A DNA stretch of 64,000 nucleotides from Acidimicrobiia bacterium (GCA_041751055.1 JBGSYD010000011.1:2506-66505), one strand, 5' to 3'; counted from the first letter of the stretch, positions 11,895-42,899 are shown. Translations and numbers: made by a program. The notes: a model not told the origin generated them from the sequence alone.

Positions 11895-11966
11895 CTGGGG
11901 GGGCAGGGCTCGAACCCGCTCTTACAGGTCCAAAACCTGCCGTGCTACCGATTACACCACCCCCCA
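11895..11966 (-). tRNA. trnQ: tRNA-Gln (anticodon TTG)
   Basis: Reverse complement TGGGGGGTGGTGTAATCGGTAGCACGGCAGGTTTTGGACCTGTAAGAGCGGGTTCGAGCCCTGCCCCCCCAG folds as a cloverleaf; no encoded CCA. Confidence 0.95.
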
Positions 11967-15722: not shown

Positions 15723-16549
15723 TCGTCAAGCAGAGCCTGATAAATGTCGCGACGGCCCGTTCCCAGGTCTCCTGCAACCATTCTGGCGGCTTCGGATAGA
15801 GACGTCCCGGAGGCAACCAGCCGCTTCGCCGCCTCCACTGCAACGCCCAGGTCTGCTCCGACCGTATTCGCTGGCCCGATGACGAGTGTGAGTTCGCCTT
15901 TGACCTGACGCGGTCGCCATTGCTCGACTGCTTCGCCGAGGGTCCCGACCCAAACCTCTTCATGCAACTTGGTCAGTTCCCGGTTTATCGAGATCTGCCT
16001 GTCAGCCCCGAGCACCTCGAGAAATTCCTCGAGGTCGCCGATCAGGCGATGTGGCGTGACAAACCAAACGACTGGCCGGTTTTCCATGGCGGTGGCCTCG
16101 ATCCGTGTGCGCCTCTCCTTGGCCTTCTTGGGCAAGAAGCCCTCGAACACAAAACGTCCGCCTTGGAACCCGGATAACGCCACGGACATGGTCACCGAGC
16201 TCGGACCGGGAATGACCGTAACTTTCATCCCGGCTTGTCGTGCCAATCGAACCGCCACAGATCCAGGGTCGGAGATTGTTGGCATACCGGCATCGGAGAC
16301 CAGCGCCACTTTCATGCCGGCCCGAAGATCATCGACGAGCATTTCGGTACGTTCCGACTCATTGCCAGCGAATAGGGACCTGGTTTTCACCTTCAAATCG
16401 AGGTGGTTCAAGAGCTTGGCCACCCTCCTCGTGTCTTCGGCATAAACGACATCAACCAATGACAGTGTCTTCGCCAAACGATGCGAAATATCGCCGAGGT
16501 TCCCGATCGGCGTGGCACAAACAAACAATTGACCCGGATCACTCATCAA
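15707..16549 (-). CDS. rsmI: 16S rRNA (C1402-2'-O)-methyltransferase
   Basis: LFVCATPIGNLGDI, AEDTR, VSDAGMPTISDPG, FEGFLP, RELTKLHEE. Confidence 0.95.
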   Translation of the reverse strand: MMSDPGQLFVCATPIGNLGDISHRLAKTLSLVDVVYAEDTRRVAKLLNHLDLKVKTRSLFAGNESERTEMLVDDLRAGMKVALVSDAGMPTISDPGSVAVRLARQAGMKVTVIPGPSSVTMSVALSGFQGGRFVFEGFLPKKAKERRTRIEATAMENRPVVWFVTPHRLIGDLEEFLEVLGADRQISINRELTKLHEEVWVGTLGEAVEQWRPRQVKGELTLVIGPANTVGADLGVAVEAAKRLVASGTSLSEAARMVAGDLGTGRRDIYQALLDDQGMS

Positions 16550-16916: not shown

Positions 16917-18221
16917 CTAGCTTTTCAGCGAATCGCGGATGCCTTCGCCCACTGCCGGAATGTCCGAGGCGATGAAGGCCAACTGGTCGTTGATGACCTC
17001 AACCCAGGCAAAAGCGGCATCGGGGATATTGGTGGTTGCGTACTCCAAAAACGCAATCCGGGTTTCTTCTAGATCCTGGCCGGTGTCGCCCTCATAGAGA
17101 ATCAAGAACGCCGCATTGGTTCCGTCGTACCAGAGGGAATAACGGTCCCCTCCCCAGCCATCGGCGGCAGTGAGAGTCGCCTCTTCGTCCATGACTCCCC
17201 CAAACATGACTCTTAGACCAAACTCACCCCAGACCGAGTTTTCCTCGAGGGTGTATCCGGGAACTGTGATGTCCGGCATTCGAACATCTATTGGCAAATC
17301 TCGCCCGTAGTCATCTGGAGTGATTATCTGCTCGGTCGAGCCAGGAAGGTCCAGCAGCCGACCGTATGCCTCGTCGACACTGTCCCAGCCATCGCTGAGG
17401 TATAAACCCTGAACAAAAGCAAGCCCGGTGTCATATGGGAAAATCAGCGTCTCCTGGAGAAACCGTGGTGCAGCGTCGAGCTGACCGGTGCCTGCCTGGA
17501 GGGCCTCCGCAAAGAACTCGCCCAGCTCGGTCTGGCTCAGGGTCTGCAGATACAGGACCTCGTTGAGGCTGGCGTCGCCCTCGATCAGTGCCTGATACGC
17601 CGAAGCTTCGTCATATCTCTGCTCATCGAACATTGCCTGGTACCCAGCGTGGAAATCAAAATTCTGGTCAGTAAGGGAGTGGGTCAACTCGTGGACCATG
17701 GTCGCTTTCTGAACTGGGCTGAAGCCGTCATCCCGGATTGGCACTACCAGCTCCCCCGTCTCGCCGTCATAGAAACCCGCTACCTGCTCGCCGTAGAGAT
17801 CCGACAGGAGGGTTGCCAGGTCTGCAGTCTTGCTGAGAAGGCCAAGCAATTGATAGAGGGCCTCGTCAACCGGAAAATCCTCGGCTTCCTCTTCGATCTG
17901 GGCCCTGACCCGCGCCTCCAGTTCGGCTTCGGTGACAACAGAGATCAGGGGTGGCTCGATGAAACTGAGCTCACGAAGGTCCTGCGTCAGGTTTACCAGG
18001 GCAAGCAACTCGTCTCGGACTTCCTGCGGAAGACCCTCCGTGCCAGGCAGCTCGGTGATGGGTGGCGGGCTCGTTGTGGTCGATGCGGTCGGGTCGGTCT
18101 GGTTTGCGGTCGTTGTCGAAGTCGTAGCTCCGGCGAGCGTTGTGTTCGACGTGTTGGACTCACACCCGCTCACGATCAGTATGAGGGCGACAAGAAGAGA
18201 GAAGCGACGAAGAAACAGCAT
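16917..18221 (-). CDS. Secreted lipoprotein with HExxH motif (putative Zn metallopeptidase)
   Basis: Lipobox LIVSGC, Thr-rich linker, GFYDGET, VHELTHSLTDQNF, ALIEGDA, FPYDTG, GWGGDRY. Confidence 0.65.
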   Translation of the reverse strand: MLFLRRFSLLVALILIVSGCESNTSNTTLAGATTSTTTANQTDPTASTTTSPPPITELPGTEGLPQEVRDELLALVNLTQDLRELSFIEPPLISVVTEAELEARVRAQIEEEAEDFPVDEALYQLLGLLSKTADLATLLSDLYGEQVAGFYDGETGELVVPIRDDGFSPVQKATMVHELTHSLTDQNFDFHAGYQAMFDEQRYDEASAYQALIEGDASLNEVLYLQTLSQTELGEFFAEALQAGTGQLDAAPRFLQETLIFPYDTGLAFVQGLYLSDGWDSVDEAYGRLLDLPGSTEQIITPDDYGRDLPIDVRMPDITVPGYTLEENSVWGEFGLRVMFGGVMDEEATLTAADGWGGDRYSLWYDGTNAAFLILYEGDTGQDLEETRIAFLEYATTNIPDAAFAWVEVINDQLAFIASDIPAVGEGIRDSLKS

Positions 18222-18286
18222 CGGACAACAGGTTACCGGCGAGGTCGGTAATAACTCTGTAGGTCAGGTGGACCATCGTTCCAGAT

Positions 18287-18312
18287 CATCCGGATCGAGG
18301 GGCGGCGACGAA
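18287..18312 (+). promoter_or_regulatory. Putative SigK-type ECF promoter of heliorhodopsin
   Basis: CATCC-N17-CGAA ending 8 nt before the ATG; same spacing and GGGCGGCG spacer as the motif at 23655-23680. Confidence 0.6.
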
Positions 18313-18320
18313 GAGAAGTT

Positions 18321-19100
18321 ATGACATCGAGCACAGTTCCACCTCAAACACAGCCAAGAACATCACGTCTCCGCTGGTACAACCTGCTTATGGGTTTGCT
18401 TCATGCCGCCCAAGGCTTCGCTGTTTTGGCTTTGGCCAACGACTTCACACTCCCGGTAATTGCGACCTACATGGATGGGCCTCCCGGAGCCGGAACGCCA
18501 TCGGTGGAGCCGGTTTTCGATCTAAGGATCGCATGGGGCGTCGCGGCTTTCCTCTTCCTGTCCGCAATCGCGCACATCGTTATTGCGTCTCCGGGCGTCT
18601 ACACCTGGTATCGCCGCAACCTGGAGAACAACCGCAACTACGCGCGATGGATCGAATACTCGCTGTCGTCCTCGATCATGATCATCTTGATCGCGATGCT
18701 CGTCGGCATCGCCGATATCGCGGCTCTCATTGCTCTCGCCGGCGTCAATGCCTCCATGATCCTGTTCGGCTTGCTCCAGGAGAAGTACGAAAACCCGGGC
18801 CGGGACGTCAGTTGGATTTCATATTGGTTTGGCGTTTTGGCCGGTGCCGTACCGTGGCTGGCAATAGCGTGGTACTTGTTCAGCCCTGGATTCGACGCCA
18901 ACCCTCCCGGATTCGTCTACGGGATATTCGTTTCGCTGTTCGTGTTCTTCAACATCTTCGCAATCGTCATGGTGCTGCAATACAAGAAGGTCGGTAGATG
19001 GGCCAACTACGAATTTGGTGAGTCGACGTATGTGCTGCTGAGCTTGCTGGCGAAGTCCGCCCTCGCCTGGCAGGTGTTCGGCGGCACCCTAGCTGCGTGA
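18321..19100 (+). CDS. heR: Heliorhodopsin
   Basis: 7-TM protein with LHAAQG, AHIV, RWIEYSLSSSIM, NASMILFG and the retinal-binding lysine in LSLLAKSALAWQVF. Confidence 0.95.
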   Translation: MTSSTVPPQTQPRTSRLRWYNLLMGLLHAAQGFAVLALANDFTLPVIATYMDGPPGAGTPSVEPVFDLRIAWGVAAFLFLSAIAHIVIASPGVYTWYRRNLENNRNYARWIEYSLSSSIMIILIAMLVGIADIAALIALAGVNASMILFGLLQEKYENPGRDVSWISYWFGVLAGAVPWLAIAWYLFSPGFDANPPGFVYGIFVSLFVFFNIFAIVMVLQYKKVGRWANYEFGESTYVLLSLLAKSALAWQVFGGTLAA

Positions 19101-19101
19101 C

Positions 19102-20442
19102 TCATTCCCCTCGAGCAGCCTCGTAAGCCTCAATGGCGCGGAGGCGGGCCATGGCATGATCGACCATCGGCTCGGGGTAGTCCTTGCCGAGAACAAAGTT
19201 GTAGCGCGCCAGCTCGTCGCTTCCCCATCCGGCGGGTGAGTGGATTTGGGGAGCGGGTAACCCGGCGAGCTCAGGCACCCATCGTCTGATATATGCACCG
19301 TCTGGATCGAACTTCTTGGATTGGGTCATTGGATTGAAGACGCGGAAGTAAGGGGCTGCATCGGTGCCCACACCGGCCACCCATTGCCAGTTGCCCACGT
19401 TCTGCGGAGTGTCGCCATCGAGCAGGTGGTGACGCAAAAACCGTTCACCGATCCTCCAGTCGACAAGAAGATCCTTGACCAGAAACGAAGCCACGACCAT
19501 ACGGATGCGATTGTGAATCCAACCCTCCCCCTGCAACTGCCTCATTCCGGCGTCAACGATCGGATATCCGGTTCGACCTGATTGCCACGCCGCGATCTGA
19601 TCAGGGTCGTTGATCCACAGCATGGATTCGTAGTCGAAGCGCATTGGCTTGTCCACGCTGTGTGGCCATCTGGCCAAAACGTGGGCGTAGAAGTCACGCC
19701 AGGCCAGCTGTCGTCGAAAGGCAATCCGACCCGGGGTACTCCCTGACGTCCGGTCGAAAACCAGCCGGGGGCCGATCCACCCGTACTTGAGGTCAATTGA
19801 CATATGGCTCGTCGAATCGAGGTCCGGCCGATCCCGTTCCTTGTGGTAGGAATCAATCTTGTTCAGGAAGTCGATGAAACGAGTTGATGCACCGTCTTCA
19901 CCGGCGTGCTCAACTTCTGGAACGTCCGGCAAACCATCACCCACATCGGCGAGCACCCGCGCTTTGCCAGGATCTCCGACCGGGACTACTGGCCGATCGG
20001 ACCATGAGCGGAAGAAGGGTGTGAACACCCGATAGGTGTTTCCGCTACCGGTCAGGATGGATCCCGGTGGATGGATGTAGTTGCCGTCATGGAGATCGAG
20101 GTCGACAAGCCGGCTGATGCGGTCATCCCGACTCGAGCCAAATGGAGTGACGTCACGATTGGCATGGACGATATCGGCCCCTACCCGTGCCACGACGTCA
20201 GGCACCACCCTGGTGGGGTCTCCCCGAAGGACCAGGAGTCGGCCTCCTTGATCGGACAGCCTGGTATCGAGCGATTTGAGCCCTGCGATCAGGTAGGAAC
20301 GGCGGCGGTTCGAAACCGCGTCGTAGAGGTCGGGATCGATTACGAATAGGGCACATACCTCATCGGCTTGCGTGCCCGCCGCCCAAGCAGGATTGTCTTC
20401 CAGTCGGGCATCCCGACGAAACCAAACCACGGACCTCCCCAC
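19102..20442 (-). CDS. phrB: Deoxyribodipyrimidine photolyase (CPD photolyase/cryptochrome family)
   Basis: VWFRRDARLEDNPA, QLAWRDFY, TGYPIVDAGMRQL, GWIHNRIRMVVASFL, NVGNWQWVAG, PYFRVFNP. Confidence 0.93.
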   Translation of the reverse strand: MGRSVVWFRRDARLEDNPAWAAGTQADEVCALFVIDPDLYDAVSNRRRSYLIAGLKSLDTRLSDQGGRLLVLRGDPTRVVPDVVARVGADIVHANRDVTPFGSSRDDRISRLVDLDLHDGNYIHPPGSILTGSGNTYRVFTPFFRSWSDRPVVPVGDPGKARVLADVGDGLPDVPEVEHAGEDGASTRFIDFLNKIDSYHKERDRPDLDSTSHMSIDLKYGWIGPRLVFDRTSGSTPGRIAFRRQLAWRDFYAHVLARWPHSVDKPMRFDYESMLWINDPDQIAAWQSGRTGYPIVDAGMRQLQGEGWIHNRIRMVVASFLVKDLLVDWRIGERFLRHHLLDGDTPQNVGNWQWVAGVGTDAAPYFRVFNPMTQSKKFDPDGAYIRRWVPELAGLPAPQIHSPAGWGSDELARYNFVLGKDYPEPMVDHAMARLRAIEAYEAARGE

Positions 20443-20445
20443 TTC

Positions 20446-20625
20446 CTAACCGCGCTCCGGAGGGTCGGGGAAGAGTGTGTTGGTTCGATACAGGTAGTCC
20501 CCGTATTCGGGGCCTCGTCTGACAATCGACTCTTCCAACGTACCGGACCCGGTCACTTTGAACAAGGATCCATGACCGAAACGGCGGAGATCCTCGGGCA
20601 TAACCTGGACGATCGGCGCAGCTGA
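20446..20625 (-). pseudogene. C-terminal remnant of a DUF1295 (steroid 5-alpha-reductase-like, Rv0446c-like) gene
   Basis: ...SLFKVTGSGTLEESIVRRGPEYGDYLYRTNTLFPDPPERG* resembles the DUF1295 terminus (LLxxVSGxxLLE...Y.xY..RT..FFPxPP); a -1 shift joins it to ISAVSVM; no upstream TM region. Confidence 0.55.
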
Positions 20626-20638
20626 ATCCTGAGCTGGC

Positions 20639-21808
20639 TCAATTGCGCAGCGCCCTCCTGTAGAACTCAATTGTCTTGTCGGCGACCGCCTCGATTGTGT
20701 AGAACTCGGTGAACCTGTCCTTGGCAGAGTCAACCAAAGACTTCGCGAGGTCTTTGTCCACAAGCACGCGCGAGATGGCGGCAGCCATTTCGTCCGGAGC
20801 CTCCAACGACACCAGCATGACCACCGGTGTCTCGCCGCCAGCCACTTCGCGAACTGACGGGATATCACTCGCAACGACAGGGACTTCGAGGGCCATTGCC
20901 TCGATCAATACGCCAGGAGACCCCTCTGTTCTCGACGGAACCACCACAACATCGGCAGCACACATCAAGTCGGGCACGTCGGTCCTGTGACCCGCGAATG
21001 TCACGGCTTCGTCGAGCCCGCCGGTGGCCGCGGTCCGTCGAAGGTTGGCTGAGGCCGGACCCTCCCTGCCCGCAATCAAGAGGTGGGCTTCGGGGACGCA
21101 CTCCCTCACACCGGCAAAGGCTGATAACAGAAGATCGAGACCTTTCATGTGGTAATGCCTGCCAGCTGCCATAACAAGTGGCACTTGATCGCCTAGTCCG
21201 AGCGAACGCCGCACGTCGGCCCGTCTTCCCGGAGAGTTAGCGCCGAGCATGCCAAGGTCCCGACCCCGCGGAATCACCTCGACGCGGTCCCGGGGAACTC
21301 GCAGTCGCGTGGCCATTAGATCGGCGCTGCTTGCCGACACGGCATGAAACCTACGGACCAACCTGGCCGTTATTGCGTCCGTCAAGTGCGCGGCTCGTAC
21401 TTTCCAGCGCCGGTACTCAGGGTTGGACAGGTGTTCGGGGCCGTATAACTCGGTGACGAAGCTGGAAACCACAGGTATTCGAGCGAGTCGCGCTGCGACC
21501 CGGGCGGTCACATCGGCTTCGAACAATATCGTGTGAACAAGGTCCGGACGCAGCGACCTGAGCAATTTGAGTCCTCGAAATACGGCCATGATGCGACCCC
21601 CGCCACCTGCGATGCTGTGCAATGAAACTCCACTAGCGTCGAGGCTTCCGCCCACCCCCACACGGTCCACCAGGTAGGCCACGTGGAGATCGATGCCGTC
21701 CTTGACCAGGTAGGGAGCCACCATCGCCAGAGACTGTTCGGCACCGCCAACAGCAAGGCTATCGATGACGATCAATATTCTGAGCCGAGCATTTATCGAA
21801 CGTTTCAC
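20639..21808 (-). CDS. GT4-family glycosyltransferase
   Basis: IDSLAVGGAEQ, KGLDLL, PSRTEGSPGVLIEAMA, VVASDIP. Confidence 0.9.
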   Translation of the reverse strand: MKRSINARLRILIVIDSLAVGGAEQSLAMVAPYLVKDGIDLHVAYLVDRVGVGGSLDASGVSLHSIAGGGGRIMAVFRGLKLLRSLRPDLVHTILFEADVTARVAARLARIPVVSSFVTELYGPEHLSNPEYRRWKVRAAHLTDAITARLVRRFHAVSASSADLMATRLRVPRDRVEVIPRGRDLGMLGANSPGRRADVRRSLGLGDQVPLVMAAGRHYHMKGLDLLLSAFAGVRECVPEAHLLIAGREGPASANLRRTAATGGLDEAVTFAGHRTDVPDLMCAADVVVVPSRTEGSPGVLIEAMALEVPVVASDIPSVREVAGGETPVVMLVSLEAPDEMAAAISRVLVDKDLAKSLVDSAKDRFTEFYTIEAVADKTIEFYRRALRN

Positions 21809-22776
21809 GCCTGGTGCTCATGCCTTCGGACTCGTTGAGCTAGATCGGACATGGTCAGGTTTTCGAGGAGGCCCTCGTCGATGCCCTTGCGGGCTTCCTC
21901 AAACAGAACTTCGAAGGCTCGGCGCGATCTCCGCGGGTGCCCCGCGAGATTGTGGCTGTGGAACCACATGTGGAAGAGCGAAGACGTCCGAACTGCGCCA
22001 CGGAGGCGTCGGCGCACGACCCGACCCCAGAGTTCATCGCCCAGCCGGTCGGCGGTTTTCGAACCGGGATTGAAGAGGTACGTCTGAGGGATCGCCACCA
22101 GATCGCCCTTGATCTCGGGGCGGAATGCGCCGGAACGAAGGGGGCGAACCCGATCCATAGCTAGGGCCATCTTCTTCAGTGGGGGCGACATCTGTGTGAA
22201 ACGATCGGGTGTGTGACTCCGATAAGCCAAGAATCCCGCTTCGGCGAGAAGTCCCAGATGCCCTATCGAGTTGCGCGGAAACACGTATGACATCAGGTTC
22301 AGACCGCTCTCCGCGGCAGCGCTCAAGCAAGCCTCGAGATCGGAGCGAAAGGCCTCCTCAGTGCAACCCTCGTCGCCGGCGATGACATGCCCGAACGAGT
22401 GCGAGGCGAGCTCGTGTGGTATGTGGCTCTCTCTGATCCTCGCGACCAGATCAGGGCCATACCAGGTGGGGTCGTCGGTGAGCGACGTGCCGGGGTCGAG
22501 GTCGTACCAGTCACCGGCGAACCACGAATAATCGGGCCGCACTATTTCCGGATGTTTCATTCCGGTGGATTGTCCACATCGGGGCAAGAAGAGATGGCCT
22601 ACCACGGCCCAAGTCGCCGAAATCTCGTACTCTTCCATCACCTCGAGCAATTCGGCCACCACCCGCCGCTCTTCGAGATAGGGCGACCTGTCATGTGGTG
22701 AACCATGGTGAACTGCGCCCCACGACATCTCGAGATCGATCGATATTACGAAGGCGGCTGCCCCATCTAAGACCAT
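21805..22776 (-). CDS. Polysaccharide deacetylase family protein
   Basis: FVISIDLEMSWG, ATWAVVG, ELASHSFGH, SYVFPRN, FHMWFHSHN. Confidence 0.8.
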   Translation of the reverse strand: MVLDGAAAFVISIDLEMSWGAVHHGSPHDRSPYLEERRVVAELLEVMEEYEISATWAVVGHLFLPRCGQSTGMKHPEIVRPDYSWFAGDWYDLDPGTSLTDDPTWYGPDLVARIRESHIPHELASHSFGHVIAGDEGCTEEAFRSDLEACLSAAAESGLNLMSYVFPRNSIGHLGLLAEAGFLAYRSHTPDRFTQMSPPLKKMALAMDRVRPLRSGAFRPEIKGDLVAIPQTYLFNPGSKTADRLGDELWGRVVRRRLRGAVRTSSLFHMWFHSHNLAGHPRRSRRAFEVLFEEARKGIDEGLLENLTMSDLAQRVRRHEHQA

Positions 22777-22986
22777 AAAAAGTCACTGTACCGACGGCCT
22801 TTAAATACCCTGGCCTGGTGCCCCATGGCAAGGGGCCCCGGACATGCGTGAGGATTGCGGACCGCGGGCAAAAGGTTTCAGCGGCGATCTTCCCGGGGCC
22901 AGTGTATGCAACCGCCGAGAGGAGTTCGGGGCGGCGGCATGCGACTGTCACCGATCGCACCCTGACTGTGAATGAGGTTTATCCCC

Positions 22987-23541
22987 TCAACCTGCTGCAA
23001 GGTCGGACATCGAGACTGCAAGTCTTTTCATTCCAGTGCGAATTCGGCTTTTCACCGTACCTTCGGGTGCTCCTAACCGACGAGCAACCTCGACGTAGCT
23101 CAGGCCCTCGAGGTAGGCCAGGGAAATTGCCTCCCTCTCGCCGTCCGGGAGGTCGTTCAGAGCGGCTCGCACATTCTCGGAGATCGTAAGGGCCCAAACG
23201 TCGTCGACGACGTCAGAATGATCCCGGTCAGGTGGTTTAAGCTCCCGCCGGGACCGAGCGACTTCGGAGCGGACGGCGTCGACCGCCCTGCGATGGGCAA
23301 TAGTCACCAGGAAGTTGCGAAGCGATCCGCGTCTGGCATCAAATCTTTCCGGTGCGTCCCAAAATCGAAAGAACGTGTCCTGAACCACGTCTTCGGCGAG
23401 CGTTGGATTGTGAAGCACCCTTCGAGCAACCGATCTGACCGCTCCTCCGTGTTCTCCCATCACGGTCTCCATTGCGGCCTCATCGCCCCTCAAGACAAGG
23501 TCGGCTAGCGCCTTGTCGCGTTCATCAACTCCGACCATCAA
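22987..23541 (-). CDS. ECF RNA polymerase sigma factor, SigK-like
   Basis: AEDVVQDTF..FW..PERFD..RGS, AHRRAVDAVRSE, LAYLEGLSYVEVA..LG...GTVKSRIR; the AHRRAVDxVR signature is shared with mycobacterial SigK. Confidence 0.85.
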   Translation of the reverse strand: MMVGVDERDKALADLVLRGDEAAMETVMGEHGGAVRSVARRVLHNPTLAEDVVQDTFFRFWDAPERFDARRGSLRNFLVTIAHRRAVDAVRSEVARSRRELKPPDRDHSDVVDDVWALTISENVRAALNDLPDGEREAISLAYLEGLSYVEVARRLGAPEGTVKSRIRTGMKRLAVSMSDLAAG

Positions 23542-23653
23542 ACCTCGAATCGAGACCCACCGATGCTAATGGTGGAGGGCCGGGACCAGCATTTTGGCGG
23601 TACCGACTAGGGCACGATTAACGGGCTTGTGTTTGGAGGCACCAATTTATTTC

Positions 23654-23680
23654 CCATCCGACGCACTGGGCGGCGCCGAA
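23654..23680 (+). promoter_or_regulatory. Putative SigK-type ECF promoter
   Basis: CCATCC-N16-CCGAA ending 6 nt before ATG 23687. Confidence 0.62.
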
Positions 23681-23686
23681 CCAGAC

Positions 23687-24061
23687 ATGATGGGTAACAG
23701 AATCGCAATCATCGGCACCGGTATTTCCGGCCTCGGGGCAGCCTGGGGGCTCCATGCAGATAACGAAATCACCGTTTATGAAGCGGCCGATCGTTTGGGC
23801 GGGCACTCCAACACCATCAAGGTCGACACGCCTCTGGGAGAAACGTCCGTCGATACCGGTTTCATTGTCTATAACAATGAGACCTACCCAAATCTTTCCC
23901 GGCTATTTGCCAAACTCGAAGTCGCGACCGAGCCCAGCGACATGTCCTTCTCATATTCAGTTGACGGCGACTTCGAATACGGGGCAAGCCTTTCTCTGTG
24001 CGAGGCTGGGTTCCGGCTGGGCCGGATAAATGTAGAACAGTGGAGTTTCTCCCGACCATGA
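23687..24061 (+). pseudogene. Truncated FAD-dependent oxidoreductase (Rv0449c/UfaD-like amine-oxidase family)
   Basis: IAIIGTGISGL.AAW.L, EAADRLGGHSNT, VDTGFIVYN..TYPNL, SDMSFS; similarity ends near 23990 after about 100 aa, whereas intact family members are >400 aa. Confidence 0.8.
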
Positions 24062-24098
24062 AGCGATACTCCCGCTTGTTCAATATCGTGACCAATCC

Positions 24099-25100
24099 AT
24101 GATCGGCAACGACACACCGGATCGCCTCGCCGCACGCCTCGGCGTGATGGCGGCTGCGATTGCGGGTGACTCGGGCGGGCTCTATCAACTGGTTGCAAGG
24201 CTGTTGGACGACGGCGTGCCCCTCGACGTCATTCTCTTCGACATTCTCATTCCCACCGAAAGAGATGTGGGCCAGCGCTGGCAGCAGGGTGACGTGCTCA
24301 TCTCGGAGGAACATGCCGCCACAGCGACCATGGAGACGGTTGTCTCCCTGATCGCGGGATCCTTCGATCCATCGGATAACGGTCCCCGAATAGTGATTGC
24401 GGCAGCCGAAGGAGATGACCATTCTCTTCCGGGGCGCCTGATTGCGGCCCACCTGCTTTTCCTCGGCTACCGGACGGCATACCTGGGTGGCAACGTCAAG
24501 GCCTCAGATCTGGCGGAATATCTCCAGGGCGAACCGGCTGATGCAGTTGTTCTCTCTTGCGCCCTGCCCACACATCTGATTGGTGCGCGTTCGTCGATCC
24601 AGGTAAGCCATCATGCAGGGGTCCCTGTTGTCGCCGGGGGCAATGGGTTTGGCCCGGGTGGGGTCTGGGCCACGCCGTTGGGGGCAGACGTATGGGTTCC
24701 GACTCCCCGGCAGGTGTCAGAGACTCTGGAATCGTGGAATCCGGACCCCGCGACTTCGGAAGCCCGAGCAGTTGATATGACTTCCGACGTCGCCGCACTC
24801 ATCAATCGCCGGATGAGAATCGTGTCATCCGCCCAGGACCACGTCGCGGCCGGAGGCAATCAATACCCCGATCGGGAAACCACCGACGAGATCGATCATC
24901 TTCTGAGTGCTGTGGGAGCGGCGATGTTTGTTGGCGATTCGGCTCTGTTGTCGGCCGAAATCAAATGGCAACAAGCGATGCTCGCTGCTCACAGCAGAAC
25001 CGACTCGGATCAAATTGTCGAGGCGATGGTCGCCGCTCTGGAGTTGGAATCGCCCCTGGCTGCTGAGTTCATGCAGGCGACAATCCGGGCCAAATCCTGA
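24099..25100 (+). CDS. Cobalamin (B12)-binding domain protein, CarH/AerR-like W-x9-EH, no DNA-binding domain
   Basis: Four-helix cap with VGQRWQQGDVLISEEH, Rossmann B12 domain EGDDHSLPG...YLGGNV...VVLSC...GG, extra helical C-terminal domain. Confidence 0.85.
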   Translation: MIGNDTPDRLAARLGVMAAAIAGDSGGLYQLVARLLDDGVPLDVILFDILIPTERDVGQRWQQGDVLISEEHAATATMETVVSLIAGSFDPSDNGPRIVIAAAEGDDHSLPGRLIAAHLLFLGYRTAYLGGNVKASDLAEYLQGEPADAVVLSCALPTHLIGARSSIQVSHHAGVPVVAGGNGFGPGGVWATPLGADVWVPTPRQVSETLESWNPDPATSEARAVDMTSDVAALINRRMRIVSSAQDHVAAGGNQYPDRETTDEIDHLLSAVGAAMFVGDSALLSAEIKWQQAMLAAHSRTDSDQIVEAMVAALELESPLAAEFMQATIRAKS

Positions 25101-25122: not shown

Positions 25123-26118
25123 ATGATGGAGAACGCATGGAGCCGTCGTCTGATAACGGTTCCAGCCGTTTATCTCAGCTTTGCAGCCCTGACTCTTGCC
25201 ATGCCCATAGTGATGACGGTGGCGGCAGTTACCGATCTCGGCAGGTGGTTCAGACGGCGTAAGCCAGCCATTGCCATGCGCATTACGGTGTTCGGCTGGT
25301 GTTACCTCTTGGGTGAAACGTGTGCGGTGGCCGCCATGGCCCTGGCAGCGTTGTTGGGGCGCGACCTATCAATCAAAGCCACCTACCGATTGCAGCAGGT
25401 CTGGCTCAACTGGAACTTCGATATGCTCAGTCTGGCCTTCAGTCTGAATTTCGAGGTCGAAGGAACCACGGAGATCACCCCAGCGCCATTTGTGCTGCTC
25501 TCCCGCCACGCCTCACTCATCGACACGATGCTCCCTGGCCGATACGTCGTCGGGCCCCACGGCCTGAGACTTCGCTATGTGTTGAAAAAGGAGCTGCTGA
25601 TCGACCCAGCTCTCGACATAGGCGGCAACCGCCTCCCCAACTACTTCATTGACAGGGGAGGCAGCGCGGCGCAGGAACTCGATGGTATCCGTCACCTCGC
25701 TTCCGGATTGGGAACCCGAGACGCCGTACTGATATATCCAGAGGGGACACGCTATTCAGACGCAAAACGCAAAAAATACGTCGACCGAATCACCCGGCGG
25801 GGTGGACCCGCCGCTGACGTCGCCTCCACCTACCGGCACGTGCTGCCGCCGCGCCCGGCCGGGACGCTTGCGATTCTCGACGTATCGGAGGCCGACGTGG
25901 TGATCCTGGCACACCGTGGATTGGAAGGCTTCGCGACCCTTGCGGACATGTGGGACGGCGGTCTGGTGGGGTCAACTGTGGAAGTCCTGTTTCGCCGGAT
26001 CCCGAAATCGCAAATTCCCTCTGATCGGGATTCACAACAGCTGTGGCTGTACCAGGTCTGGGCCGAGGTCGACCAATGGGTCAATGACACAGCCGGGCGG
26101 ATTCGCCGTATTCGATAG
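25123..26118 (+). CDS. Lysophospholipid / 1-acyl-glycerol-3-phosphate acyltransferase family protein
   Basis: RHASLIDT (HxxxxD), LKKEL, FIDRG, IYPEGTR, LPPR; N-terminal TM helices. Confidence 0.85.
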   Translation: MMENAWSRRLITVPAVYLSFAALTLAMPIVMTVAAVTDLGRWFRRRKPAIAMRITVFGWCYLLGETCAVAAMALAALLGRDLSIKATYRLQQVWLNWNFDMLSLAFSLNFEVEGTTEITPAPFVLLSRHASLIDTMLPGRYVVGPHGLRLRYVLKKELLIDPALDIGGNRLPNYFIDRGGSAAQELDGIRHLASGLGTRDAVLIYPEGTRYSDAKRKKYVDRITRRGGPAADVASTYRHVLPPRPAGTLAILDVSEADVVILAHRGLEGFATLADMWDGGLVGSTVEVLFRRIPKSQIPSDRDSQQLWLYQVWAEVDQWVNDTAGRIRRIR

Positions 26119-26123
26119 TTGGG

Positions 26124-26197
26124 TGGAGCTGAGGGGATTTGAACCCCTGACCCCCTGATTGCGAACCAGGTGCTCTGCCAGGCTGAGCTACAGCCCC
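26124..26197 (-). tRNA. trnA: tRNA-Ala (anticodon CGC)
   Basis: Reverse complement GGGGCTGTAGCTCAGCCTGGCAGAGCACCTGGTTCGCAATCAGGGGGTCAGGGGTTCAAATCCCCTCAGCTCCA. Confidence 0.95.
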
Positions 26198-41593: not shown

Positions 41594-41986
41594 ATGGAGG
41601 CCACCTACAAAATCACGGTAGAGGCAGACGCCGACACCGTTTTTACCCATATGACGGACCCTGCTCTGCTCAGCAAATGGTGGCCGTCGGGAGCCGAGAC
41701 GGATCTCCGGGTTGGTGGCACATATCACCTTTGGTGGGAGGGGCCCGATTGGCACCTCCGCGGTGAGTACCTGGAGATTGATCCTCCTAACAATGTGCGA
41801 TGGACCTGGAAATGGGACCACGATGAGCTCCCACCCCGTGAGGTCGCGATCACCATCACAGGCAGAGTCGACACCACCGAGATCGAAATCATTCATGAAG
41901 CAGGCTCCCCCGAGGAGCGAGATTCCTACCTCGAGGGGTGGTCTCATTTCTTGGGCATCCTGGGAGATCTCCTTGAAAATCGGTAG
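41594..41986 (+). CDS. SRPBCC/AHSA1 (activator of Hsp90 ATPase-like) domain protein
   Basis: VF...TDP.LL.KWW, DLRVGG.Y, GEYLEIDPP...WTW, GW..FL..L. Confidence 0.88.
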   Translation: MEATYKITVEADADTVFTHMTDPALLSKWWPSGAETDLRVGGTYHLWWEGPDWHLRGEYLEIDPPNNVRWTWKWDHDELPPREVAITITGRVDTTEIEIIHEAGSPEERDSYLEGWSHFLGILGDLLENR

Positions 41987-42899
41987 CCAACTTGCGAACC
42001 GGGTTCGCTCCCGGATCATCGATGGCGCGGCCGGGCCCTTTCGTCACACGGAGTACCCACTGAGCAACAGTCTCGACTATCCCGGCGACCCTGGACTCCA
42101 TGGCCCGGGGTCGGTGACTTGGTCGGTAATGGGAGATGTTGCGACATTTGTCGGCGGAATACGCGGCCTCTTGATCCAGGCGGCCCATCCCGAAGTCGTT
42201 GCCGGTGTCGGGGATCACTCCCGCTACAGAGAGGATCCGCTTGGGCGCCTCTCTCGCACATCTGCGTATGTCACCGCCACCTCATATGGTGCGATGCCTG
42301 AAGTCGCGCGTGCCGTGGCAACCGTCAGAAGGATTCATCAGAGAGTGAATGGCGTGTCCGAGCGCGGGGTCCCCTATAACGCCGACGACCCCGGCTTTTC
42401 AGCGTGGGTTCACAACGCCCTGACGGACTCATTTTTAGTTGCGAATCAGGTCTATGGCGCAACCAAGCTGGGACCATCCGACGCCGACCGGTTTGTCTTG
42501 GAACAAACCAGTGTTGGCGCTCTTCTGAATGCCAACCCGATGCCTGACAATGCCGGGGCTCTCGAGGATTGGATTGTCAACCACCCGGATTTGGCTGCCA
42601 GCAAGGCCACAGAAGAAGCGGTCGAGTTCCTGCGACATCCTCCGTTGACTACCGGTGTACGCCTCGGCTACAAGGTCCTGCAGGCCGCGGCAGTGGCCAC
42701 CCTTCCGGCACGTATAAGATCGATCCTCGGCCTGGAGACCACTCCGGGTGCGATAGCCGCGGGGCAAGCTGCGATCCGGGGACTGCGTTGGGCGTTGGGA
42801 TTTTCACCAACATGGCATCTCGCCCTCCTACGCACCGAATCTCCGGTCCCGCTCGGCAAGTTCGTTCAGCCCCTTCCGGTCAACATCGAACAGGGCTGA
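41973..42899 (+). CDS. MpaB/DUF2236 oxygenase family protein
   Basis: DPGL.GPGSVTW.V.GD, LLIQAAHP.V.AGV.DHS, RL.RT, HQRV.G, WVH..L.DSF; likely TTG start at 41973. Confidence 0.85.
   Translation: MKIGSQLANRVRSRIIDGAAGPFRHTEYPLSNSLDYPGDPGLHGPGSVTWSVMGDVATFVGGIRGLLIQAAHPEVVAGVGDHSRYREDPLGRLSRTSAYVTATSYGAMPEVARAVATVRRIHQRVNGVSERGVPYNADDPGFSAWVHNALTDSFLVANQVYGATKLGPSDADRFVLEQTSVGALLNANPMPDNAGALEDWIVNHPDLAASKATEEAVEFLRHPPLTTGVRLGYKVLQAAAVATLPARIRSILGLETTPGAIAAGQAAIRGLRWALGFSPTWHLALLRTESPVPLGKFVQPLPVNIEQG

Follow-up and report, generated by a model that had tools for sequence, protein, structure and literature searches.

A SigK-type promoter motif upstream of heliorhodopsin genes in Acidimicrobiia

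Introduction

Heliorhodopsins were discovered in 2018 and are widespread in aquatic Actinobacteria. To our knowledge, no function has been agreed for them and the regulation of their genes has not been addressed so far. What, then, switches a heliorhodopsin gene (heR) on? The question is raised by a 64,000-nt stretch of DNA from an Acidimicrobiia bacterium (GCA_041751055.1 JBGSYD010000011.1:2506-66505), referred to below as the window, in which heR and a second gene are each preceded by the motif CATCC-N17-CGAA and a gene for an extracytoplasmic function (ECF) sigma factor resembling SigK of Mycobacterium tuberculosis (Mtb) lies in between. The nearest relatives of both the sigma factor and the heliorhodopsin are found in Acidimicrobiia metagenome-assembled genomes (MAGs). 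An initial annotation of the window had proposed that this sigma factor directly transcribes heR. Comparative evidence (motif conservation, agreement with the SigK consensus, the family of the sigma factor and the nature of the targets) supports the proposal, in which direct transcription itself stays a prediction. Very probably, both motif copies are functional promoters read by RNA polymerase carrying the sigma factor encoded at 22987-23541, and heR belongs to a SigK-type regulon conserved across Acidimicrobiia. The features on which the argument turns are:

18287-18312, plus strand: site 1, predicted SigK-type ECF promoter of heR; exact match, 26.8 bits by position weight matrix (PWM), homologous site in relatives
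18321-19100, plus strand: heliorhodopsin (heR), 259 aa; Pfam PF18761, E 5e-100
22987-23541, minus strand: SigK-like ECF sigma factor, 183-184 aa, cysteine-free; NCBIfam and PDB matches
23655-23680, plus strand: site 2, second predicted SigK-type promoter; exact match, PWM 19.9 bits, divergent from the sigma gene
23687-24061, plus strand: open reading frame (ORF) of 124 aa, a deletion remnant; tblastn

The identity of the heR product is clear. It has the PF18761 fold, is 72-79% identical to other Acidimicrobiia heliorhodopsins, and all sequences of alignment A1 keep its retinal lysine, K245.

Two promoter sites in the window

Both sites are real and specific promoter motifs. At site 1, the -35 box CATCC(G) occupies 18287-18292 and the -10 box CGAA 18309-18312, with a 17-nt spacer between them; 8 nt separate CGAA from the heR ATG at 18321. 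Site 2 is laid out alike, with (C)CATCC at 23654-23659, a 17-nt spacer, CGAA at 23677-23680 and an ATG at 23687, 6 nt beyond. The motif and its equal spacing are thus present as the initial annotation had described them. So is the lack of a sigmaA-type TANNNT hexamer, none being found between motif and ATG at either site, and a sigma-70 consensus scan of 18100-24200 returned no site.

The boxes agree with those of mycobacterial SigK promoters. The published consensus is CCATCC-N15-CCGAAT, i.e., CATCC-N16-CGAA (Chauhan 2016, PMC4821874, Suppl. Table 2), and the consensus CCATCC...CCGAA given in the annotation agrees with it. Written in the same form, site 2 is CCATCC-N16-CCGAAc and site 1 is tCATCC-N16-aCGAAg, each with a spacer one nucleotide longer.

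The two sites also share the block GGGCGGCG at equal spacer register, which the annotation had pointed out, but the block is not a conserved element. Locus L087, from a relative whose sigma factor is 90% identical, has CCATCC-GAAGTCCCAGCCCGTGC-CGAA at the same promoter; because this orthologous promoter lacks GGGCGGCG, the block was rejected as a functional element. The only spacer trait seen family-wide is a weak preference for GGC 2-5 nt before CGAA.

Could the likeness of the two sites be due to chance or GC-rich composition? Taken by itself, the 9-base core shows no significant enrichment: it has three exact matches in the window where 1.18 are expected, a count that 11 of 100 shuffles reach, and GGGCGGCG occurs 14 times in the window. 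The third exact match, at 16226-16251 within a minus-strand gene, scores 3.8 bits by PWM; it was rejected as a promoter and put down to chance, the plus-strand ORF behind it being a low-complexity translation. Against an origin by chance stands the PWM, which was built solely from sites in other genomes with the window excluded. Scanned over both strands (128 kb), it gave 26.8 bits for site 1 and 19.9 bits for site 2, with no other position above 9.1 bits; Markov-1 random windows predict 0.035 matches at 19.8 bits or more, versus two observed. Orthologous sites exist in dozens of species, and the comparative data refute this explanation, to which hardly any probability is given.

Conservation upstream of heR

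A search of other heR upstream regions, proposed in the annotation as a check, bears the motif out. The heR alignment scan, with one genome per species, yielded 80 loci, and a split PWM was applied with a threshold of 15 bits (the 99th percentile of the background is 12.5 bits per 420 nt). The promoter was found directly upstream of heR in 49 of 81 non-redundant species, and the exact motif within 250 nt upstream in 41 of 85 loci. The fraction of PWM-positive loci is 40/43 when heR is at least 72% identical and 19/19 when a SigK-like sigma gene lies within 10 kb. Upstream of distant heR genes, from Chloroflexota, Coriobacteriia, Thermoleophilia and Demequinaceae, the motif was not found; the link is thus specific to the Acidimicrobiia lineage.

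The same two boxes emerge when no motif is assumed. In the heR upstream regions of 45 species aligned on the ATG (A of ATG = +1), information peaks only at -35 to -30 (tCATCCg) and at -12 to -9 (CGAA). Spacer sequences diverge freely between species, and the modal distance from CGAA to ATG is 8 nt. This geometry is that expected of an ECF promoter with a leaderless mRNA, in line with the leaderless-compatible position noted initially. In the mechanism proposed here, the holoenzyme containing the SigK-like sigma factor would bind CATCC(G) as its -35 element and, at a distance of 16-17 nt, CGAA as its -10 element. Transcription is predicted to start at or beside the A of the ATG at 18321, which would give a leaderless heR mRNA.

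Conserved blocks upstream of a gene might instead be an operator for a DNA-binding regulator, for example a light-responsive repressor, or heR might be transcribed mainly from an unrecognized housekeeping promoter. The function of the sites is a prediction, a light repressor of the MerR/CarH type would be in keeping with the genes concerned, and MerR regulators are among the reported heR neighbors (PMC11109279). Nevertheless, the site is asymmetric, consists of two blocks at a fixed distance of 16-17 nt placed at -34 to -30 and -12 to -9 from the ATG, and is always co-oriented with the gene; it serves leaderless genes and genes with 30-70 nt leaders alike. It matches a known sigma consensus, the stretch 18100-24200 holds no sigma-70-like site, and the B12 photoreceptor encoded behind site 2 (see below) has no DNA-binding domain. 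An operator or a hidden housekeeping promoter is accordingly considered quite improbable, and a promoter of the SigK type is preferred.

Some variation is seen at the heR sites. The -10 variant CGTA was found at four heR sites in the PWM analysis, and CGTA replaces CGAA upstream of heR in loci L006, L007, L021, L040 and L077; in L021, where heR has CGTA, the promoters of the oxidase and sigma genes have CGAA. L013 and L015 carry the heR promoter region (CATCCGATCGGACCGGGCGCTACGAA) as a tandem duplication, which places two SigK-type sites before heR.

Genes behind the motif in relatives

The motif is enriched in the loci of relatives. A total of 140 exact sites occur in 1.34 Mb, compared with 6-63 for five permuted control motifs, and 77 of the 140 have an ORF start within 15 nt, compared with 1-13 for the controls. 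Spacer length is that of the window sites, one nucleotide over the Mtb spacing, at 73 sites and equal to the Mtb spacing at 15. The genes recurrently found behind the motif, with the number of sites and the distance from CGAA to the start, are:

heR: 35 (+4) sites; mostly 8 nt
Rv0449c-like amine oxidase, heading an oxidase-DUF1365-cyclopropane fatty acid (CFA) synthase operon: 11 sites; 8 nt before the ATG
fasciclin, mpt83-like: 9 sites; leader of 31-62 nt
SRPBCC protein, followed by SDR: 7 sites; 8 nt
alpha/beta hydrolase: 7 sites; 27-74 nt
acyltransferase, with DUF1295 and photolyase behind it in L005 and L158: 7 sites; mostly 10 nt
DUF4397 protein, followed by sortase and B12 protein: 5 sites; 40-61 nt
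the sigma factor itself (sigK-rskA in relatives): 5 or more sites; variable distance

These families overlap the known Mtb SigK regulon (PMC4105308, PMC7509140): in relatives the motif precedes the oxidase, the fasciclin and the sigK operon, of which the window retains a remnant of the oxidase only. The relation of Rv0449c to SigK named in the annotation is likewise documented, sigK of M. tuberculosis being autoregulated through the Rv0449c promoter (PMC7509140). The regulon would consist, first, of such classical targets, i.e., the amine oxidase-DUF1365-cyclopropane fatty acid synthase operon, the mpt83-like fasciclin lipoprotein and sigK-rskA. It would also include light-related genes (heR, the photolyase behind the acyltransferase, and a photocobilin), an SRPBCC-SDR pair and an alpha/beta hydrolase.

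A metagenome scan for the exact strong-consensus promoter plus ATG, which is semi-independent and favors the -10 box in the form found at heR, gave 68 sites. Among others these include 8 before heR, 2 before sigma, 2 before SRPBCC and 1 before the oxidase, and 30 have no ORF; heR is the commonest recognizable downstream gene (8/68).

Three further gene types have the consensus promoter plus ATG in metagenomes: a 166-aa methyltransferase-like protein on five contigs (L095, L102, L103, L131, L151), TatA-like proteins (L105, L134) and GDSL-type lipoproteins (L125, L146). They could be further regulon members or chance matches in other taxa. In L015, L020, L024, L048 and L051 the intergenic region between the acyltransferase and the alpha/beta hydrolase carries two divergent, overlapping SigK-type promoters back to back. 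These share one palindromic -10 core, TTCGGCGCCGAA, so that either promoter has its -35 box downstream of the start of the other.

The SigK-like sigma factor

Which sigma factor reads the motif? The annotation had called the product of 22987-23541 SigK-like, and database matches agree. Its best NCBIfam match is NF007228 SigK (E 1.6e-41, 142 bits), and its best PDB match is Mtb SigK, 4nqw (E 8e-24), ten orders of magnitude ahead of the next, SigL (5e-14). By these matches it is classed as SigK-like, and as no curated SigK equivalog. Thousands of homologs 55-70% identical exist in Acidimicrobiia. In about half of the neighborhoods examined, an RskA-type anti-sigma gene (zf-HC2 with HxxxCxxC, RskA_C) overlaps the sigma stop codon (ATGA), and RskA_C/zf-HC2 genes follow the sigma gene in relatives that are 55-69% identical; in the remaining neighborhoods, including the window, RskA is lost or fragmentary. 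Of eight sigma-anchored contexts, six have heR no more than 10 kb from the sigma gene.

Loss of RskA goes together with loss of the SigK-type promoter before the sigma gene. Among 28 sigma-bearing loci, that promoter was found in 8 of the 12 with full-length RskA, with a ninth served through an upstream operon gene, and in 1 of the 16 where RskA is absent or degenerate, that one at a contig edge. Upstream of the window sigma gene no SigK-type promoter was found, the best PWM score being -5.4. The alignment of upstream regions disclosed a different element there:

23563-23568, minus strand: TAGCAT, candidate sigmaA-type -10 hexamer (TANNNT) upstream of the sigma gene

In each of the 11 upstream regions aligned for sigma genes that lack an intact RskA, TAGCAT, TAACAT or TATCAT stands at the same place. 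This suggests that such genes are transcribed in housekeeping fashion; the window has this second architecture. Since RskA is absent and a sigmaA-type hexamer stands in place of a SigK promoter, sigma activity in the window genome would not be controlled by release from RskA; presumably it is set by expression of the sigma gene or by some other partner.

The specificity of the PWM, conservation upstream of heR, the footprint, the enrichment over permuted motifs, the consensus match, the family of the sigma factor, synteny and the logic of autoregulation together favor reading of both sites by the SigK-like sigma factor. Several points weigh against it:

i) the score of 142 bits is below the curated NCBIfam SigK cut-off of 226; ii) the cysteine pair of SigK (Mtb C133/C183) is missing, there being no cysteine at all in the window sigma factor or in the relatives examined; iii) neither RskA nor a remnant of it was found downstream of the sigma gene or elsewhere in the window; iv) the prevailing spacer exceeds that of the Mtb consensus by 1 nt; v) since exact CATCC/CGAA matches defined its core, the PWM cannot itself measure conservation of the boxes; vi) the heR-bearing loci come from related species and are not independent samples; and vii) the organisms are uncultured and the evidence is computational throughout, making the sigma-promoter assignment and the transcription start predictions, and the light theme is read from gene content. 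The circularity of the PWM is addressed by the ATG-anchored footprint and the permuted controls. A natural SigK type that has no cysteines and is independent of RskA, which is lost or truncated, has already been described for Nocardia (PMC7509140). A 16-residue RskA match within the deacetylase-like ORF at 21805-22776 was judged to be noise.

The promoter could also be genuine and conserved but read by another sigma factor, such as an ECF paralog encoded elsewhere, the adjacent SigK-like gene being a mere neighbor. For such a reading speak 30 motif-positive heR loci without a SigK-like sigma gene within 10 kb, a count for which its presence elsewhere was checked in one genome. Additional ECF sigma factors do occur, e.g., at 14408-14962 of L001, and 37%-identical sigma factors lie near heR in L006 and L007; moreover, the window sigma gene has no promoter of this type of its own, and the usual argument from autoregulation fails here. 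On the other side, the boxes equal the published SigK consensus, and in relatives the motif stands upstream of sigK-rskA, fasciclin and Rv0449c-type genes, which define the SigK regulon. All 19 loci with a nearby sigma gene have the heR motif, and in the one genome checked (MAG SMAG_U16138) the sigma gene (L160) and the motif-bearing heR (L030) are on separate contigs, which explains at least some of the motif-positive heR loci without a nearby sigma gene. Another sigma factor is thus regarded as unlikely, though the likeliest of the alternatives, and the SigK-like protein is the preferred reader of both sites.

Genes downstream of the second site

What would site 2 transcribe? The annotation had treated the gene at 23687 as a counterpart of Rv0449c. 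The promoter does precede an oxidase-derived ORF, but this is a deletion remnant and not an intact Rv0449c homolog. It consists of residues 1-101 of the amine oxidase, continued in frame by the C-terminal 22 residues of a CFA-synthase homolog (tblastn: oxidase aa 1-101 at 23690-23992, CMAS aa 367-388 at 23990-24055), and Pfam detects only the Rossmann N-terminus. The deletion removed the 3' part of the oxidase gene, DUF1365 and most of CMAS. The same truncation is present in an independent assembly (L086, 99.98% identical over 19061-24322), whereas the 90% relative L087 has an intact 437-aa oxidase behind the same boxes. As a consequence of the deletion, the retained promoter now leads into the remnant ORF and two further genes:

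24099-25100, plus strand: photocobilin-like photoreceptor with a CarH-type adenosylcobalamin (AdoB12) domain and a C-terminal helical bilin-binding domain; Pfam B12-binding_2, B12-binding
25123-26118, plus strand: acyltransferase; Pfam Acyltransferase, 59% identical to motif-preceded acyltransferases

The 24099-25100 protein is predicted from motifs and fold to be a B12/bilin photoreceptor of the photocobilin type. Photocobilins, photoreceptors that use B12 and biliverdin, were described in 2024 in a paper that mentions neither rhodopsins nor SigK (PMC10979010). The window protein joins a CarH-type B12 domain, in which Wx9EH (W61, E71, H72) and D106/H108 of the DxH motif are invariant in 42 homologs, to a C-terminal bilin-binding domain; it has no DNA-binding domain. 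Its AlphaFold2 (AF2) model (pLDDT 96) matches the photocobilins 8j2w/8j2x/8j2y over the full length with a Foldseek TM score of 0.83, and phmmer aligns it with 8j2w over residues 11-304 (E 4.8e-41). The idea that its C-terminal part is a classical anti-sigma domain was found unsupported, the whole protein superposing on photocobilins. Standalone photocobilins of ~330 aa form a family that is apparently confined to Acidimicrobiia and usually linked to the SigK-like sigma factor and heR. Before the photocobilin gene of L002, which is divergent from the sigma gene there, no SigK-type promoter was found.

The acyltransferase gene begins 22 nt past the photocobilin stop codon, and the two probably share one transcript. 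No SigK-type promoter was found directly before it in the window. In relatives the acyltransferase gene is the first of an operon with a SigK-type promoter, and the photolyase gene is the last. The window photolyase gene is elsewhere, convergent with heR:

19102-20442, minus strand: deoxyribodipyrimidine photolyase; Pfam and NCBIfam

The PWM scan of the window found no SigK-type promoter for it.

A light-related regulon

The regulon holds three light-dependent proteins: heliorhodopsin (retinal), photolyase (flavin) and photocobilin (B12/bilin). Such a set of genes suggests that the regulon responds to light or to photo-oxidative damage. Links between heliorhodopsin and some of these partners have been reported: TfHeR enhances photolyase (PMC9769723), the window heR adjoins a photolyase gene, and heR neighbor groups include photolyase, SDR and alpha/beta-hydrolase (PMC11109279). 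The known partner pairs of heliorhodopsin, with photolyase, glutamine synthetase and an ABC transporter, differ from the present case in being protein-protein effects and operon neighbors, with no promoter type or sigma factor given.

The link between heR and SigK appears to be new, as the annotation had supposed. A literature search found no paper pairing heliorhodopsin with an ECF sigma factor or SigK. The main heR neighborhood studies list photolyase, SDR, hydrolase and two-component genes and do not mention a sigma factor. Papers containing both heliorhodopsin and "sigma factor" are, by title and abstract, genome surveys, and those examined draw no link. The new elements are the recruitment of heR, photolyase and photocobilin, the mostly leaderless targets, and the form that lacks RskA and is not autoregulated.

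A SigK-type promoter would be the first concrete handle on how heR is switched: one sigma factor, one 26-bp site and a leaderless start. The regulon would also show with which partners heR is co-expressed, namely photolyase, a B12/bilin photoreceptor and lipid-modifying enzymes, and would place photocobilin in a defined regulatory context. The inducing signal of mycobacterial SigK is still unknown (PMC7509140), and since the same regulon is rich in light-related genes here, it is a possible clue to that signal. A bolder and rather doubtful idea is that the SigK system is at root a light or photo-oxidative circuit with feedback from its own photoreceptors, heliorhodopsin, a membrane protein whose photocycle is slow, signaling to the membrane-bound RskA where that is present, and photocobilin, which has no DNA-binding domain, acting as a light-dependent partner (anti-sigma or activator) of the orphan sigma factor where RskA is lost, the window being such a case. 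If true, heliorhodopsin would gain a transcriptional signaling output, and the inducing signal of the mycobacterial SigK/mpt70-mpt83 regulon would be hinted at.

Relation to known regulatory systems

The Acidimicrobiia system resembles the mycobacterial SigK-RskA regulon (ECF19; Rv0449c-Rv0444c, mpt70/mpt83) in how it works and shares an evolutionary link with it. The CCATCC...CCGAA(T) boxes are alike, the sigma factor is closest to SigK, and relatives keep both the mpt83(fasciclin)-sigK-rskA cassette and the Rv0449c-type oxidase/DUF1365/CFA-synthase operon behind the motif. Even the lack of a SigK-type proximal promoter before the window sigma gene has its parallel, the proximal promoter of Mtb sigK (sigKp) not being SigK-dependent (PMC7509140). 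The differences are that i) the spacer from CATCC to CGAA is mostly 17 nt, not 16, and the sigma factor scores under the curated SigK cut-off; ii) the regulon here adds heR, photolyase, photocobilin, SRPBCC-SDR and the hydrolase, with many leaderless targets; and iii) the window genome lacks RskA, the oxidase operon and autoregulation.

The singlet-oxygen regulon of Rhodobacter sphaeroides sigmaE-ChrR (ECF11), which holds photolyase, a CFA synthase homolog and a divergent operon (PMC3546557), offers a second comparison. In both cases an ECF sigma gene is divergent from an operon of conserved uncharacterized genes and the theme is photo-oxidative, but the sigma family, the anti-sigma factor (ChrR, not RskA) and the promoter sequence differ, and neither a rhodopsin nor a B12 photoreceptor has been reported for the sigmaE-ChrR regulon.

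In Streptomyces LitR-LitS and in Myxococcus CarH/CarA with CarQ, a CarH-type AdoB12 module is linked to an ECF sigma factor that activates photoprotective genes. In these LitR/CarH systems the B12 protein binds DNA as a MerR-type repressor and acts at a step before the sigma factor. Here, by contrast, the photocobilin is without a DNA-binding domain and its gene usually lies downstream of a promoter of the sigma factor.

Other features of the window

Two genes lie between the photolyase and sigma genes, and one more distant gene is related to a neighbor of sigK-rskA in relatives:

20639-21808, minus strand: GT4 glycosyltransferase
21805-22776, minus strand: deacetylase-like protein
41985-42875, plus strand: MPAB homolog, 18 kb from the sigma gene

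The MPAB homolog is 64% identical to the MPAB_Lcp_cat gene that follows sigK-rskA in L005 and L158; no SigK-type promoter was found before it. An Rfam scan of the window returned two tRNAs only, at 11895-11966 and 26124-26197, both on the minus strand, the latter beginning 5 nt past the acyltransferase stop codon.

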